Part shown: in pieces, positions 24,748 through 29,361 of the stretch
Layout: each line of letters begins with the position of its first letter
How positions within the stretch are numbered: position 1 is the first letter of the stretch
Source of the DNA: an uncultured Candidatus Binatia bacterium
GTDB lineage: Bacteria; Desulfobacterota; Binatia; UBA9968; JAJDTQ01
Direction of reading: 5' to 3'
DNA: 64,000 nucleotides
Assembly: GCA_965242525.1 (NCBI GenBank)
Contig: OZ251459.1
Location: 2,752,001 to 2,816,000, forward strand
The notes under the pieces: generated by a model
The model's input: only the letters and a program-made list of their open reading frames with translations
What the model was told of the DNA's origin: nothing
The model's database searches: none
Translations under genes and position numbers: made by a program

Positions 24748-25464
24748 ATGCCCGTCTGGGACGACATCCTGACCGACCGTGACAAGGAAGTGTTCGCCCT
24801 TTCCGGTTACGGCCAGCACGCGGGGTTCGGCCAGCGTCCGGCCGTGCTCGTCATCGACGTGAACTACAACTTCGTCGGCGACCGGCGGGAGCCGATCCTC
24901 GAATCCGTCAAACGCTTCCGCAACAGTTGCGGCGAGGAGGGATGGGTCGGGGTCGATCACACGGTGGAGCTCCTGGCGGAGGCCCGGAAGAAGCGGCTGC
25001 CGATCTTCTATACCACCGGCCACGGCGAGGAAGAGTCCGTCGCCTTCGGCCGCTGGCACGGCAAGAACCGGCGGGGCGCCGAGGACTTTTCCGAGCTGGC
25101 CCGGAAGGGCAACGAGATCGTCGCGGAGATCGCCCCCCGGCAGGGCGACGTGGTGGTGCGCAAGCAGAAGCCCAGCGCCTTCTTCGGCACCGCGCTCATG
25201 AGCATGTTGAACGAGTTGCACGCGGACAGCGTGCTGGTGACCGGGACCACCACCAGCGGCTGTGTCCGGGCCACGGTCATCGACGCGTTCTCCTACAACT
25301 TCGGCGTCAGCGTGGTGGAGGAATGCACCTTCGACCGGGGCCAAGCCTCCCACAAGATCAACCTCTTCGACATGAACATGAAGTACGCGGACGTGGTGTC
25401 GCTGGAGGAGACCGTGGATTACATCCGGGGCCTGCCCGACAACCTCTTCGCTCCGCCGCTCTGA
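24748..25464 (+). CDS. Isochorismatase / cysteine hydrolase family protein
   Basis: PAVLVID, KQKPSAFFGT, GTTTSGCVRATVIDA. Confidence 0.9.
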   Translation: MPVWDDILTDRDKEVFALSGYGQHAGFGQRPAVLVIDVNYNFVGDRREPILESVKRFRNSCGEEGWVGVDHTVELLAEARKKRLPIFYTTGHGEEESVAFGRWHGKNRRGAEDFSELARKGNEIVAEIAPRQGDVVVRKQKPSAFFGTALMSMLNELHADSVLVTGTTTSGCVRATVIDAFSYNFGVSVVEECTFDRGQASHKINLFDMNMKYADVVSLEETVDYIRGLPDNLFAPPL

Positions 25465-25478
25465 GCGCCGCGCGCAGC

Positions 25479-26390
25479 ATGAGCGGGGTCGCACGCCAGA
25501 TCGAGGGGTTCGGGGACTACCTGCGCGACGGAGCGCGGTTCTCCCCCCACTCGGTCAAGGGCTACCTGACCGACCTGGAGGGGTTCCGCCAGCACCTGGA
25601 GCGGGACGGCCCCGAAGAGGACGGGGCCGCGGCCTTGCGAGCGGTGGACGCGCGTTGCATCCGGGGCTACCTGAAGACCCTCTACGAAAGCCGCAAGAAG
25701 AGCACCATCGGGCGCAAGCTGGCCGCCCTCAAGGGCTTCTTTCGCTACCTCCTGCGCGAGGGGGTCATCCACAGGGACCCGCTGGTGGGTTTCGCCACTC
25801 CCAAGCAGGAGGCCCCGCTGGTGAAGTTCCTGTCCGTGGACGAGGCTTTCCGGGTCCTGGGCTGCATGCCGGAAGAGGGGGTCCTCCCGGCCCGGGACCG
25901 CGCGGTCATGGAGGTGCTGTACTCGTCCGGCGTCCGGGTCAGCGAGCTCGTGGGCCTCGACTGGCGCGACGTGGACTTCCCGCTGGGCGTGGTCAAGGTC
26001 CTGGGCAAGGGGTCCAGGGAGCGCATCGTGCCCGTCGGCGAAGCGGCCCTGGCGGCCCTGCGGGACTACGCGGACCACCAGCGCACCCGGTGGCGCCGCA
26101 CGGCCCGGGGGGAAGAGCCGGTGTTCCTGAACCGTTCGGGCAACCGGATCACCACCCGGAGCGTGGCCCGCATCGTGGAGAAGTACCTGACCCTGGCCGG
26201 CGTCCCCGTGCGCATGGGACCCCACGGCCTGCGCCACACCTTCGCCACCCACCTGCTCAACGCCGGCGCAGACCTGCGCTCCATCCAGGAACTCTTGGGC
26301 CACGCGAGCCTCTCCACCACCCAGCGCTACACCCACGTCAACCTCGACCAGCTCACCGCGGTGTACGACCGCGCCCACCCCAGGGCGTGA
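25479..26390 (+). CDS. xerC: Tyrosine recombinase XerC
   Basis: RDRAVMEVLYSSGVRVSEL, GKGSRERIVP, PHGLRHTFATHLL, QELLGHASLSTTQRYTH; upstream of hslVU. Confidence 0.9.
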   Translation: MSGVARQIEGFGDYLRDGARFSPHSVKGYLTDLEGFRQHLERDGPEEDGAAALRAVDARCIRGYLKTLYESRKKSTIGRKLAALKGFFRYLLREGVIHRDPLVGFATPKQEAPLVKFLSVDEAFRVLGCMPEEGVLPARDRAVMEVLYSSGVRVSELVGLDWRDVDFPLGVVKVLGKGSRERIVPVGEAALAALRDYADHQRTRWRRTARGEEPVFLNRSGNRITTRSVARIVEKYLTLAGVPVRMGPHGLRHTFATHLLNAGADLRSIQELLGHASLSTTQRYTHVNLDQLTAVYDRAHPRA

Positions 26391-26595
26391 GGCCGTGAGA
26401 AGCCGCCGCAAGGCCGCGTAGTCTTCTTTCCCCGCCATCTTCGGCCTTTCACGCCGGCGCTTGGCTTTCCTTGCCGGGAAATATGGGCTATCCGTAGATT
26501 GATCTGTGCCGCCTGCCCTACGTAACCAAGCAGGTGCATGGAGTCGGGCGGGTTCCGCGAAATCGCGTGGGGTACACAGTCCTGACAGGCAACTC

Positions 26596-27480
26596 ATGGC
26601 AAGAGCAAAAGCGAAACTAGGCCCGGTGGTAGCGACACTCAACCTCAAGGGCGGAGTCGGCAAGACTACGGTGAGCGCTCACGTCTTTCGAGTCTTCTGG
26701 GAGAAATTCAGAATCGCTACCCTGCTCGTGGACTTTGATCCACAGTTCAATCTCACCCAGACTCTCTTCGACCAGCGACGCTATGAGCGAGAACTCAAAG
26801 CGAAGCGCACCGTCATGGCGGTAATGGAGGCGCCTCGGTCCACAAGCCTGTTCCAAGTCAACACTGCAAGCGCTCCGCCTCCGGACCCTATCGACGTCAG
26901 TACACGGTTCTGGTACATGACGAACAACCATGACATCGACCTCCGTGTGGTCCCGGGCGATTTCGAACTCGTGAAGTACAGCTTGATGGACGACAACAAG
27001 CAACTGACCAAGGTGCAGAACAGGTTTCTGAAATTCATCAAGAAATGTCGCCAGGGCGGGCGACTCACGGTCATCGACTGCAACCCGAGCAGTTCGTTCC
27101 TGACCATGTGTGCCCTTCAGGCGTGTACTCATTTGCTCGTGCCGGTAAGACCGGACCGTTATTCCATTCTTGGCCTGAATATACTGGAACAGTTCATCGC
27201 AAGGATTCTTTCCGTCGGATCCGTCCCGAAGAAAATGATACTGCTGAACGGCGTGCCTCGGCAGCGTTACGATCGCACCATAGAGAACGAGCTGCGCTCG
27301 CATCCCGAGTTGGGAGCGGCGACGCTCAAGTCTCGGCTTCATCAATCGAACCTATTGCTGGCCAAGCCTGGATTTACGGGTTTTGCCACCGACAAGCAAG
27401 TGCCTTACAAGTATCGCTTGAAGAACGAAATTTCGGCAGTCGCTACGGAATTGGCTGAATTGATGGGCGTTGCGTCATGA
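26596..27480 (+). CDS. ParA/MinD-family ATPase (not a typical chromosomal ParA)
   Basis: Deviant Walker A NLKGGVGKTT, DFDPQFNLT, IDCNPS. Confidence 0.85.
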   Translation: MARAKAKLGPVVATLNLKGGVGKTTVSAHVFRVFWEKFRIATLLVDFDPQFNLTQTLFDQRRYERELKAKRTVMAVMEAPRSTSLFQVNTASAPPPDPIDVSTRFWYMTNNHDIDLRVVPGDFELVKYSLMDDNKQLTKVQNRFLKFIKKCRQGGRLTVIDCNPSSSFLTMCALQACTHLLVPVRPDRYSILGLNILEQFIARILSVGSVPKKMILLNGVPRQRYDRTIENELRSHPELGAATLKSRLHQSNLLLAKPGFTGFATDKQVPYKYRLKNEISAVATELAELMGVAS

Positions 27481-27995
27481 AAAACAATACAAAGCGTTGG
27501 CTCTACCTCCTTGCCGGATCGGGCCTTTCCGCAAACGAGATCCGTGACCTTTGCAGTTGGCTTGCGACGGACGCAGCCGATGACATCGTAGTTTCGGTTC
27601 TCGAATTGCGTAAACGAGAGTTGCATATGGTAGCTCTAGGAGAACACGTTCCCGGCATGTCCGGTGAAGGCGCACGGCGAGCAGGCACGGGCAAGAGCGG
27701 CAACGACGTTGCGGACGAAATCGATCTGATCCTGAGAAAGGAAGCCAAGCTGTCGGCGCGAGCCGCCGCGGAACATCTTGCACACGAGCTGGAGAAGGAG
27801 CTTCGCACGTCATCCCCCGCGACCTCGGACATCCCGAATATACCTCTTTACTCGAAGGAAGCGTTCAAAACCTATCTGTCCAAGCTGCTTCGACTTACGT
27901 CGCCTCGGATGTTGCTGCATCTGGCCCACCGTATCCGCGATCATGTGGCTCCAAGACCAGCGATGGCATGGCCCCTGCATGTCAGGGACAAGTGA
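27477..27995 (+). CDS. Hypothetical protein (172 aa)
   Basis: ATGA overlap with the ParA stop and TGATG overlap with the next gene. Confidence 0.7.
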   Translation: MKNNTKRWLYLLAGSGLSANEIRDLCSWLATDAADDIVVSVLELRKRELHMVALGEHVPGMSGEGARRAGTGKSGNDVADEIDLILRKEAKLSARAAAEHLAHELEKELRTSSPATSDIPNIPLYSKEAFKTYLSKLLRLTSPRMLLHLAHRIRDHVAPRPAMAWPLHVRDK

Positions 27996-28708
27996 TGCCT
28001 GACGACTTCCAGCACCAAGTCGACGACCTTGCGGCGTCGGTAGCGGCCCACGTCAAGGCAAACCGCGATGAGTTCTGCCGGCGCGTTTCCGAGGAGGCGA
28101 ATTGTCTGCTCGCCTGGTTGGAGTACCTGCGGACGTCGGAGGCAACCGGCGTAGCCGATGCGCTGTTGCATGGAGTTCAAGGCGCCATCATCGAAGCGGC
28201 CGGTTGTCTCACGCTTGGTCTCGTCAGGCCGGCGCTGTCGTCTCTCAGGTTGCAAGTGGACATGACGCTAAGTTGGATCTACTTCAAGGACCACGAGGTG
28301 GAGTGGGACCATCTTCGGGATACCGGGAAAGGATTTCAATCGAAGAGCGGCGTGTGGAAGTACGTTTCAGAGCATCATCCGCGGTTCGAAACGAGATTCG
28401 GACTGCTGGAGCAGGTCAAGTCGCGCAGGGAAGCGGACCCTTACCGGCTTCTGTCGGCCCACATACACGGACAGACCGACTTTACCGCGCCGACGATTGG
28501 CCCGTTGAGCGGGCTCGTCGCGGAAAGACGCCTCTGTGACGAGTGTGTGGAACTCCAAGGGGAAGTCTCGGAATATCTGAGTGATTTCCTGCTGTCGGCA
28601 TACGGCGACAAATGGGCGTCTCTTCCTCCGTGTGCGCGGGACGAGCTTGAAAGCAGGCTTGGACTCGACCAAAGGGCTGCGTTCTTCGCGTCCTCGCATG
28701 GCAGGTAG
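27995..28708 (+). CDS. Hypothetical helical protein, possible HEPN-superfamily domain
   Basis: [21 protein letters not shown] and [10 protein letters not shown] (R-x6-H) patterns; coupled start at ATG 27995. Confidence 0.6.
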
Positions 28709-28720
28709 TCAACCCGGGGC

Positions 28721-28749
28721 CTGCCAAGTCCGCGGTTTCGTGTTACAGT
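28721..28749 (+). promoter_or_regulatory. Putative promoter for hslVU
   Basis: CTGCCA-N17-TACAGT with extended -10 TG. Confidence 0.35.
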
Positions 28750-28830
28750 GGCGGATCGTCCCGGTTGGCCGCGGACGGTCCCCTGACGGGGAGCGGCAGT
28801 GGCGGGGGCCTTGGGAAGCGGGTTCGGACC

Positions 28831-29361
28831 ATGTTTCATGCAACCACCATCCTTGCGGTGCGGCACGGGGGCCGGGTCGTGGTCGCGGGGGACGGCCAGG
28901 TGAGCCTCGGCGACACCGCGCTGAAGCACACGGCCCACAAGGTGCGGAAGCTCTACGGCGACCGTGTGATCGCCGGGTTCGCAGGCGCCACCGCGGACGC
29001 GTTCACGCTGTTCGAGAAGTTCGAGGGCAAGCTCGAACAGCACGGCGGGGTCTTCAAGCGGGCCGCGGTGGAGTTGGCCAAGGATTGGCGCACGGACCGG
29101 GTGCTGCGGCGGTTGGAGGCCCTCATGATCGTGGCCGACGCGGAGAACTCGCTGGTGGTGTCGGGCAACGGCGACGTGGTGGAGCCGGACGACGGCGTCA
29201 TCGCCATCGGCTCGGGCGGCAACTATGCGCTTGCGGCGGCGCGGGCTTTGGTCCATCATAGCCCGCTCGACGCCCGGGCCATCGCCGAAGAGTCCATGAA
29301 GGTGGCCGCGGCCATCTGCGTCTATACGAACGACAACCTGACCATCGAGGAGTTGCCCTGA
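28831..29361 (+). CDS. hslV: ATP-dependent protease subunit HslV
   Basis: [47 protein letters not shown]. Confidence 0.97.

Follow-up and report, generated by a model that had tools for sequence, protein, structure and literature searches.

What kind of element is the three-gene segment that separates xerC from hslV in an uncultured Candidatus Binatia bacterium, and what might it do for the cell that carries it? The segment was studied in a 64,000-nt stretch of contig OZ251459.1 (assembly GCA_965242525.1), hereafter the window, in whose coordinates it occupies positions 26396..28711. This insert of ~2.3 kb carries three overlapping genes on the plus strand: g1, encoding a ParA/MinD-type ATPase with a deviant Walker A motif (26596..27480, +; 294 aa), g2, encoding a fast-evolving middle protein (27477..27995, +; 172 aa), and g3, encoding an all-helical protein presumed to be the effector (27995..28708, +; 237 aa). 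An earlier interpretation of this DNA, made without database searches (the sequence-only reading), had described the genes as coupled, and the overlaps that it named, ATGA at 27477-27480 and TGATG at 27993-27997, are indeed in the sequence, with g3 starting at the ATG inside TGATG. The comparisons presented below make it rather probable that the insert is a DS-15-type three-gene anti-phage defence cassette, horizontally acquired and lodged in a hotspot between xerC and hslV.

The identity of the first gene product is well defined. The open reading frame (ORF) of g1 opens at GTG 26506, and the start at ATG 26596, yielding 294 aa, fits the N-termini of 15 orthologues in alignment. The protein matches the Pfam families AAA_31 (E 3e-20) and CbiA (E 1.9e-10) and a ParA-like PHROG (E 1e-24), and its best solved relatives are Soj/ParA proteins (E 1e-17). 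Since 16 orthologues preserve, without change, KGGVGKT with its two lysines as well as D-x-DPQFN and IDCNPS, g1 should be a catalytically active ATPase.

In order to determine how far the three genes travel together, species-representative genomes were scanned with g3, which returned 17 loci from at least three phyla, including Alpha-, Beta- and Gammaproteobacteria, Polyangia, one Vicinamibacterales metagenome-assembled genome (MAG) and others. A g1 orthologue lies directly upstream of g3 in 15 of the 17 loci, the exceptions being L001, where only a fragment of g3 is present, and L010, where the contig is cut 618 nt upstream. Each of the 15 complete loci, and L010 as well, has an ORF of 153-189 aa in the middle position, and g2 itself is detected by tblastn in 10/17. 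Across loci, g1 and g3 are 39-64% identical to the proteins of the window, and for g2 the ten loci with a tblastn match show only 24-31% identity in nine cases and 54% in the remaining one (L014). The GC content of the trio is clearly below that of its flanks in most of the 17 loci. Because the same three genes recur together in 15/17 loci, their association is more than chance, and the triplet, which the sequence-only reading had singled out as a unit, is co-inherited.

A system with this architecture has been described. DS-15 (laboratory code AAA1), reported in the DefensePredictor study (Science 2026, PMC13092281), is an operon of E. coli whose three overlapping genes encode a 'MinD ATPase' of 281 aa, an unannotated protein of 132 aa and a protein of 221 aa with an HHpred match to DUF6988 (0.94). 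Its Tables S6-S8 record plaquing reductions of ~2.7 log for Bas1 and ~1.7 log for Bas3, and the system is tabulated without being discussed in the main text. The window trio and DS-15 have in common overlapping genes on the same strand and in the same order, encoding a ParA-type ATPase, a small protein and a helical protein of ~220-240 aa, and both are accessory cargo, DS-15 being found on an IMG/VR prophage contig.

To relate the two at the sequence level, IMG/VR was scanned with the g1 alignment, and 80 viral loci, several of them near-duplicates, were chosen by ParA similarity alone. One of these, L147, is DS-15: the ParA N-terminus and the lengths of 281, 132 and 221 aa match, and comparison by eye shows the whole third protein to be identical to the published sequence, while the middle protein differs from the published one at two positions. 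BLASTP aligns g1 with the DS-15A copy of L147 at 30% identity across 200 aa (E 6e-20), and both contain KGGVGKT and DPQFN. Among the 78 loci with a called ParA ORF, 63 present ParA followed on one strand by ORFs of 113-184 aa and 112-260 aa, and the third ORF reaches at least 200 aa in 59 of those 63. An iterative search with profiles, seeded by the g3 family and run over all 1,120 six-frame ORFs of the 80 loci converged on 65 ORFs in 64 loci, all in third position, and recruited no decoys; DS-15C entered at round 3 with an E-value of 1.9e-8, and four of the 16 loci without a third-gene match end at contig ends. The third protein of one locus, L074, acts as a bridge, being matched both by the g3 profile (E 7e-15, residues 57-196) and by a profile of DS-15C-like proteins from which it had been left out (E 2e-17, residues 8-226). 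R-x3-[DE] and Y-x3-[SC]-x3-H are common to the g3 and DS-15C families, R, E and H are precisely the residues that the DS-15C-like proteins retain at the equivalent positions, and the profile-profile alignment of the two groups is colinear over 204 columns with these invariant residues aligned. The g3 family joins that of DS-15C via such bridging sequences only, and not by direct comparison.

We read genes 1 and 3 as remotely but really kin to their DS-15 counterparts, and the middle component as either replaced or very fast-evolving. The view that no named system contains this trio must accordingly be given up, given the matching architecture of DS-15 and its remote homology, and because DS-15 exists and has been validated the trio is not categorically new. 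It differs from DS-15, however, in several respects: the invariant H100 and E103 of g3 are absent from the DS-15C group, the middle protein of 132 aa and the 172 aa of g2 are not detectably related, and the branch to which the window cassette belongs is mostly chromosomal, its hosts being high-GC bacteria of soil and water. On these sequence comparisons, the window cassette is a distinct and widespread branch, with an unrelated middle protein and an effector bearing an extended set of invariant residues, and the trio is a probable anti-phage system and a new divergent variant of the DS-15 kind.

A ParA-type ATPase also invites a different explanation, namely that the trio is a partition or cargo-positioning module, left by a plasmid, phage-plasmid or island, with g1 as motor, g2 as adaptor and g3 as the cargo or the DNA-binding partner. 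The intact motifs of g1, a bona fide ParA/Soj-type ATPase, are compatible with this, as is the layout of g2, since partners of ParA typically consist of a short N-terminal helix, a linker and a C-terminal domain. In one viral locus, L065, a ParB-like gene additionally lies on the opposite strand, 1.7 kb downstream of the trio (L065:8354-9445, in a 67 kb viral contig); such a neighbour was not seen in the scanned flanks of the 17 genome loci or of two further viral loci, L066 and L067. The trio nevertheless comes without its own ParB, parS or integrase, as the sequence-only reading had noted: family scans find no ParB, helix-turn-helix or ribbon-helix-helix family in g2 or g3, and only short chance repeats, with no centromere-like array, occur in or beside the insert (26300-28900). 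In tblastn searches, neither 72,556 plasmid records nor 50,697 deposited phage genomes yield a g3 relative, the cassette stands alone in chromosomes at many unrelated sites, and g3 carries enzyme-like invariant residues. The likeness to ParABS and ParA/MinD systems thus lies in the deviant Walker A fold and motifs of g1, whose best solved relatives they include, and the differences lie in the missing ParB and centromere, the absence from plasmid records and the unrelated partner genes. Because it resembles a distant cousin of the validated DS-15, the trio is a good candidate for an immune module rather than a partition remnant, and a partition role appears very improbable.

The manner in which the cassette came to lie at its present position was assessed by comparing the site with those of 25 genomes of the same genus, in all of which the DNA of both flanks was matched. 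The left flank is a housekeeping gene outside the insert, encoding an xerC-type tyrosine recombinase (25419..26390, +; Phage_integrase E 2.5e-46, Phage_int_SAM_1 E 1.4e-13), whose DNA is 84-94% identical across all 25 genomes. The right edge is formed by a conserved element 5' of hslV (28712..28745, +), as aligned to the empty site of genome G014, and is followed by hslV (28831..29361, +; ORF 28765-29361 with an in-frame ATG at 28831), which was named from the earlier interpretation and from reading its translation. Flank matches end at ~26390-26395 and restart at 28717, and the alignment to the empty site places the right junction at ~28711/28712; a block of 33-44 nt starting at 28716/28717, with 86-91% identity, appears as a separate match in six of the 25 genomes. 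The distance between flank matches amounts to ~2,321 nt here versus 16-426 nt in 23/25 genomes. The flank matches, together with a dip in GC content, delimit the inserted segment: as had been remarked from the letters, the trio is more A/T-rich than its surroundings, with a GC content of 0.52-0.61 over 26250-28750 versus 0.66-0.72 on either side.

The same gap holds cargo other than the trio in two of the 25 genomes. In the closest relative, G023, whose flanks are 92-94% identical, it contains 1.6 kb that encode an N6_N4 DNA methylase (E 2e-39) together with a fragment of an SfiI-like restriction enzyme (E 4.9e-12), and in G006 the cargo measures 4.6 kb and encodes a DUF772 transposase and a DAO oxidoreductase. 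The trio itself, searched via g3, was not found in 40 relatives, 24 of them from the same genus, and g3 is present as a single copy in the source genome. Taken on the pattern of flank matches and composition, the insert is a horizontally acquired module dropped into a variable site, and the xerC-hslV gap (26391-28830; loci L062, L063 and L064) emerges as a hotspot for defence cargo in this genus. An integrative element driven by the adjacent xerC was also considered as the source of the insert and was ruled out, since every one of the 25 same-genus genomes has a conserved xerC in synteny.

If the cassette serves in defence, its orthologues might be expected near other defence genes. A set of 145 flank ORFs within ~4.5 kb of the 17 genome loci was scanned with PADLOC and Pfam, disregarding matches to ABC transporters, sigma-54 activators and UvrB. 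Defence genes were found within 4.5 kb in 8/17 loci, a raw count without a matched control. The neighbours are JetA/JetC of Wadjet (L001), PDC-M68B of the ABC-3C type, abutting g1 (L003), a methylase-Mrr fusion (L007), an Old/AriA-like ATPase (L008), a type II methylase (L009), a DpnII-type restriction endonuclease (L013), type I restriction-modification genes around the trio together with PDC-M24B and HEC-04 (L014), and a methylase, PDC-S67 and a CBASS cyclase (L016). A transposase adjoins the trio in L004. Four trio loci lie in prophages, namely L009, which adjoins a P2-type portal and terminase, and three IMG/VR contigs, where the neighbours of the trio are a methylase and an HNH gene in L065, genes for endolysin, holin and tail in L066, and genes for spanin and tail fibre in L067.

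Three of these loci show further particularities. In L003 (2807-5411), the PDC-M68B gene, which combines DUF2326 and CTD10, ends 8 nt inside the g1 orthologue and may be co-transcribed with it. The g3 fragment beside Wadjet in L001 (6001-6609) covers residues 35-235, is accompanied by neither g1 nor g2, and is probably a decayed copy. In L014 (6001-6683), the Vicinamibacterales MAG, the trio lies inside the type I restriction-modification locus and the g3 orthologue is in two overlapping pieces, a split that therefore points to a frameshift or an assembly error.

The third gene was examined for clues to its activity. A word-indexed search retrieves 329 relatives of g3 at E <= 1e-3 and an exhaustive search 266 clusters at 50% identity; because none of the best 150 of these clusters exceeds 255 aa, no fused forms appear. 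The protein has no Pfam family match, and its AlphaFold2 (AF2) model is all-helical with a predicted local distance difference test score (pLDDT) of 90.8. Conservation was counted over 58 family representatives: R85, H100, E103 and H158 are kept in 58/58, position 89 is D or E in 58/58, Y150 and S154 are kept in 57/58, and E67 and R78 in 54/58. The conserved signature of the family is R-x3-[DE] together with Y-x3-S-x3-H.

This pattern bears on the suggestion, made in the sequence-only reading, that g3 resembles HEPN RNases with their R-x4-6-H motif. As a canonical HEPN RNase, g3 would use R151-x4-H156 or R151-x6-H158, and the motif is found in the protein of the window and in 17/20 close relatives. 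HEPN domains are also frequent among weak fold matches, accounting for at least 12 of 50 rows (Z 4.9-6.7), and the HEPN domain of sacsin, at Z 6.8, tops a further fold search. Over the wider family, however, R151 is kept in 22/58 and H156 in 32/58 representatives, versus 58/58 for R85, H100, E103 and H158, so that the invariant residues lie elsewhere, and the DS-15C-like proteins keep only R, E and H at positions other than those of the HEPN motif. The HEPN rows (Z 4.9-6.8) are level with gp41 and vinculin bundles, HEPN Pfam models match none of the 20 + 22 family members scanned, and Foldseek against PDB and BFVD returns no match at E <= 1e-3, the best probability being 0.77 at E 0.67. VIA fold searches for g3 and g2 gave only middling Z-scores, and a PDB profile search with the g3 family gave a single chance row at E 0.16. 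Compared with the HEPN toxins (HEPN-MNT, LsoA, the AbiA C-terminal domain and HepS), g3 thus shows a weak resemblance of the helical core and, in the protein of the window, an R-x4-H string; it differs in that the defining motif is not conserved in its family and that a link by sequence profile was sought and none was found. Because the motif is not conserved, the fold rows tie with unrelated bundles and Foldseek finds nothing at its threshold, HEPN is for g3 a possible distant resemblance and not a supported assignment, and a canonical HEPN RNase is an improbable identity for this protein.

A different family connection is indicated by a language-model search with g3, in which neighbouring clusters carry DUF6988 and DUF5677. 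Colinear sub-threshold matches to DUF5677 (best E 6.4e-4) are present in 7/22 distant relatives, and the g3 of the window and 20 close relatives match neither Pfam model. Alignments of DUF6988 and DUF5677 were built from canonical gammaproteobacterial proteins, with one unpublished genome excluded, and matched each other in hhalign at 97% (E 2e-10); by this comparison the two Pfam families clearly form one superfamily. Some genes match both models (loci L022/L053 and L032/L051). The g3 family aligns with DUF5677 at E 3.4e-4 (probability 38%) and with DUF6988 at E 2.4e-3 (probability 12%), and in these alignments R85, E/D89 and H158 fall on the conserved R, E and H of the two families. The likeness consists of a helical build, a similar size, and R-x3-E and Y-x3-S-x3-H in colinear helices; the difference is that the g3 of the window stays below both Pfam models and that the alignment probabilities are low. 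DUF5677 is listed for DitA of Aditi in Table S5 of PMC13092281, and a literature search on a defence role of Aditi DitA returned nothing relevant. The third gene is in this way tied to the DUF5677/DUF6988 fold found in Aditi, with candidate residues named. Canonical DUF6988 genes, found in 12/400 gammaproteobacterial genomes, lack a g1 (ParA) match in the ~1.5 kb to each side, and hence DUF6988 as such is not a marker of the trio.

Several results weigh against a DS-15-type defence cassette. Profile-profile comparison of g3 with the DS-15C-like proteins (hhalign) gives only 13.5% probability (E 2e-3), the direct comparison of g3 with DS-15C gives a BLASTP E-value of 18 and, as profile versus single sequence, nothing. 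The reverse iteration, started from the DS-15C-like proteins, misses the core g3 family and ranks the g3 of the window 753 of 1,163. The middle proteins show no detectable relation (hhalign 0.3%), and the g2-family profile finds nothing at E <= 1e-3 in the 80 viral loci. PADLOC-DB v2.0.0 yields no family at E <= 0.1 for g1, g2 or g3, which agrees with the earlier failure to recognise the trio, and motif searches of the DefensePredictor tables other than S1, with S4 in part, find no member of this family. A literature search for a ParA-like ATPase linked with an anti-phage defence system found none. In 9/17 genome loci the ~4.5 kb scan recognises no defence neighbour, and at least six of these nine are solitary inserts whose Pfam-nameable flanks are all housekeeping genes. 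Finally, of nine candidates assayed in Enterococcus five defended, and an isolated DUF5677 ORF was not one of these (PMC12632615).

The solitary inserts among housekeeping genes would also suit a selfish, tripartite toxin-antitoxin or addiction module, with g3 as toxin, g2 as labile antitoxin and g1 as a regulator or chaperone-like ATPase, which would stabilise itself or islands next to it and have no real part in phage defence. The compact coupled layout, in which a small fast-evolving gene lies just 5' of a conserved enzyme-like gene, and the decayed copies (the fragment in L001 and the split g3 in L014) are consistent with such a module. Nevertheless, g2 has no recognisable DNA-binding antitoxin fold, and to our knowledge a ParA-type ATPase is not a usual component of toxin-antitoxin systems. 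The nearest characterised relative, DS-15, was moreover scored as a defence system by plaque assays (PMC13092281). Toxin-antitoxin and defence roles are not mutually exclusive; a module of the former kind alone is considered unlikely here, though less so than a partition module or a canonical HEPN RNase, and a DS-15-type defence cassette remains the preferred explanation.

The middle protein offers fewer clues than its neighbours. It has 39 relatives and matches no family in Pfam, NCBIfam, PHROGs or PADLOC. Its AF2 model (pLDDT 83) comprises three N-terminal helices, a disordered linker (residues 56-72) and a four-helix C-terminal domain. The latter (residues 74-157; window 27696-27947) gives many weak matches to death folds (Z 4.3-6.3), including pyrin, CARD and a bacterial death-like domain, which are too weak for a claim and are recorded as a lead only. 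One ParB row in the same fold search, at Z 4.3, is uninformative, and so is a match to DUF3038, which was tried and set aside: it scored 0.93 in an atlas search, with recognition below the mark. Prediction of the complex of g1 and g3 with g2 as partner returned a score of 0.00, which is uninformative either way.

From these features we infer a possible mode of action, in which sensing, adaptor binding and effector chemistry are all conditional, as is the suggestion of the sequence-only reading that a ParA-type sensor controls an RNase by way of the middle protein. The g1 protein would alternate between a nucleoid-associated dimer with bound ATP and a free form, and could thereby serve as sensor or switch. 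The g2 protein would be a lineage-specific adaptor, whose N-terminal helices might contact the ATPase and whose C-terminal domain might contact g3. The g3 protein would be the effector, a helical enzyme whose cluster of Arg, acid, His, Tyr and Ser residues most likely cuts nucleic acid. A constellation of Arg, Glu, His, Tyr and Ser is typical of metal-independent RNases, as in barnase/T1 and RelE chemistry, and RNA is for this reason offered, with low confidence, as a first guess for the substrate. Infection would upset the ATPase cycle, for instance via foreign DNA, a phage protein or nucleoid damage; g3 would then be released or activated, and phage growth would be halted, possibly at the cost of the cell.

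Placed beside the viral loci, these observations extend to a wider set of ParA-led trios in which DS-15 can be located, comprising at least 266 clusters at 50% identity in the present branch and 64 of the 80 ParA-selected viral loci. In most of the prophage loci sampled, DPQFN-type ParAs appear to lead a three-gene cassette whose third gene is DUF5677/DUF6988-like, and this may be the more useful result. A broader reading, which we put forward as tentative and on balance doubtful, is that three-gene immune cassettes led by DPQFN ParA/MinD ATPases make up a large superfamily, so far unrecognised, in prophages and chromosomal hotspots. In such cassettes the nucleoid-riding ATPase would be the infection sensor, coupled through a freely swappable adaptor, which may be death-fold-like in this branch, to a DUF5677/DUF6988-type effector with the fold of Aditi, and the window cassette would found a distinct subtype, set apart by its own adaptor and by an active site extended with H100 and E103. 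If true, the ParA/MinD ATPase, a classic positioning machine, would have found a new use in immune sensing.

The remaining features of the insert are non-coding. A leader of putative function (26396..26595, +) precedes g1 and contains a weak hairpin at 26453-26465 and the candidate promoter TTGCCG-N18-TAGATT that had been named from the letters. These letters are present at 26471-26500, but their standing as a promoter does not hold up, with 8/12 positions matching the consensus; because this is below the scan threshold, the site is not counted as evidence. A consensus promoter scan of 26300-28900 gave no sites, where shuffled sequences lead one to expect 0.7 +/- 0.9, and there is no terminator-like site 3' of g3. 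The ~34-nt element at 28712-28745, which is kept across the genus, may be a regulatory site of hslVU.

A last observation concerns the viral loci. In eight contigs (L075, L077, L083, L093, L119, L123, L130 and L142) the ParA belongs to a subgroup that lacks DPQFN. Seven of these loci have a differently built third gene without Y-x3-[SC]-x3-H, encoding 144 aa in L093 and 227-240 aa in the others, and L075 presents no middle or third ORF by the rule used. The loci with a DPQFN-less ParA may represent another variant of the cassette.

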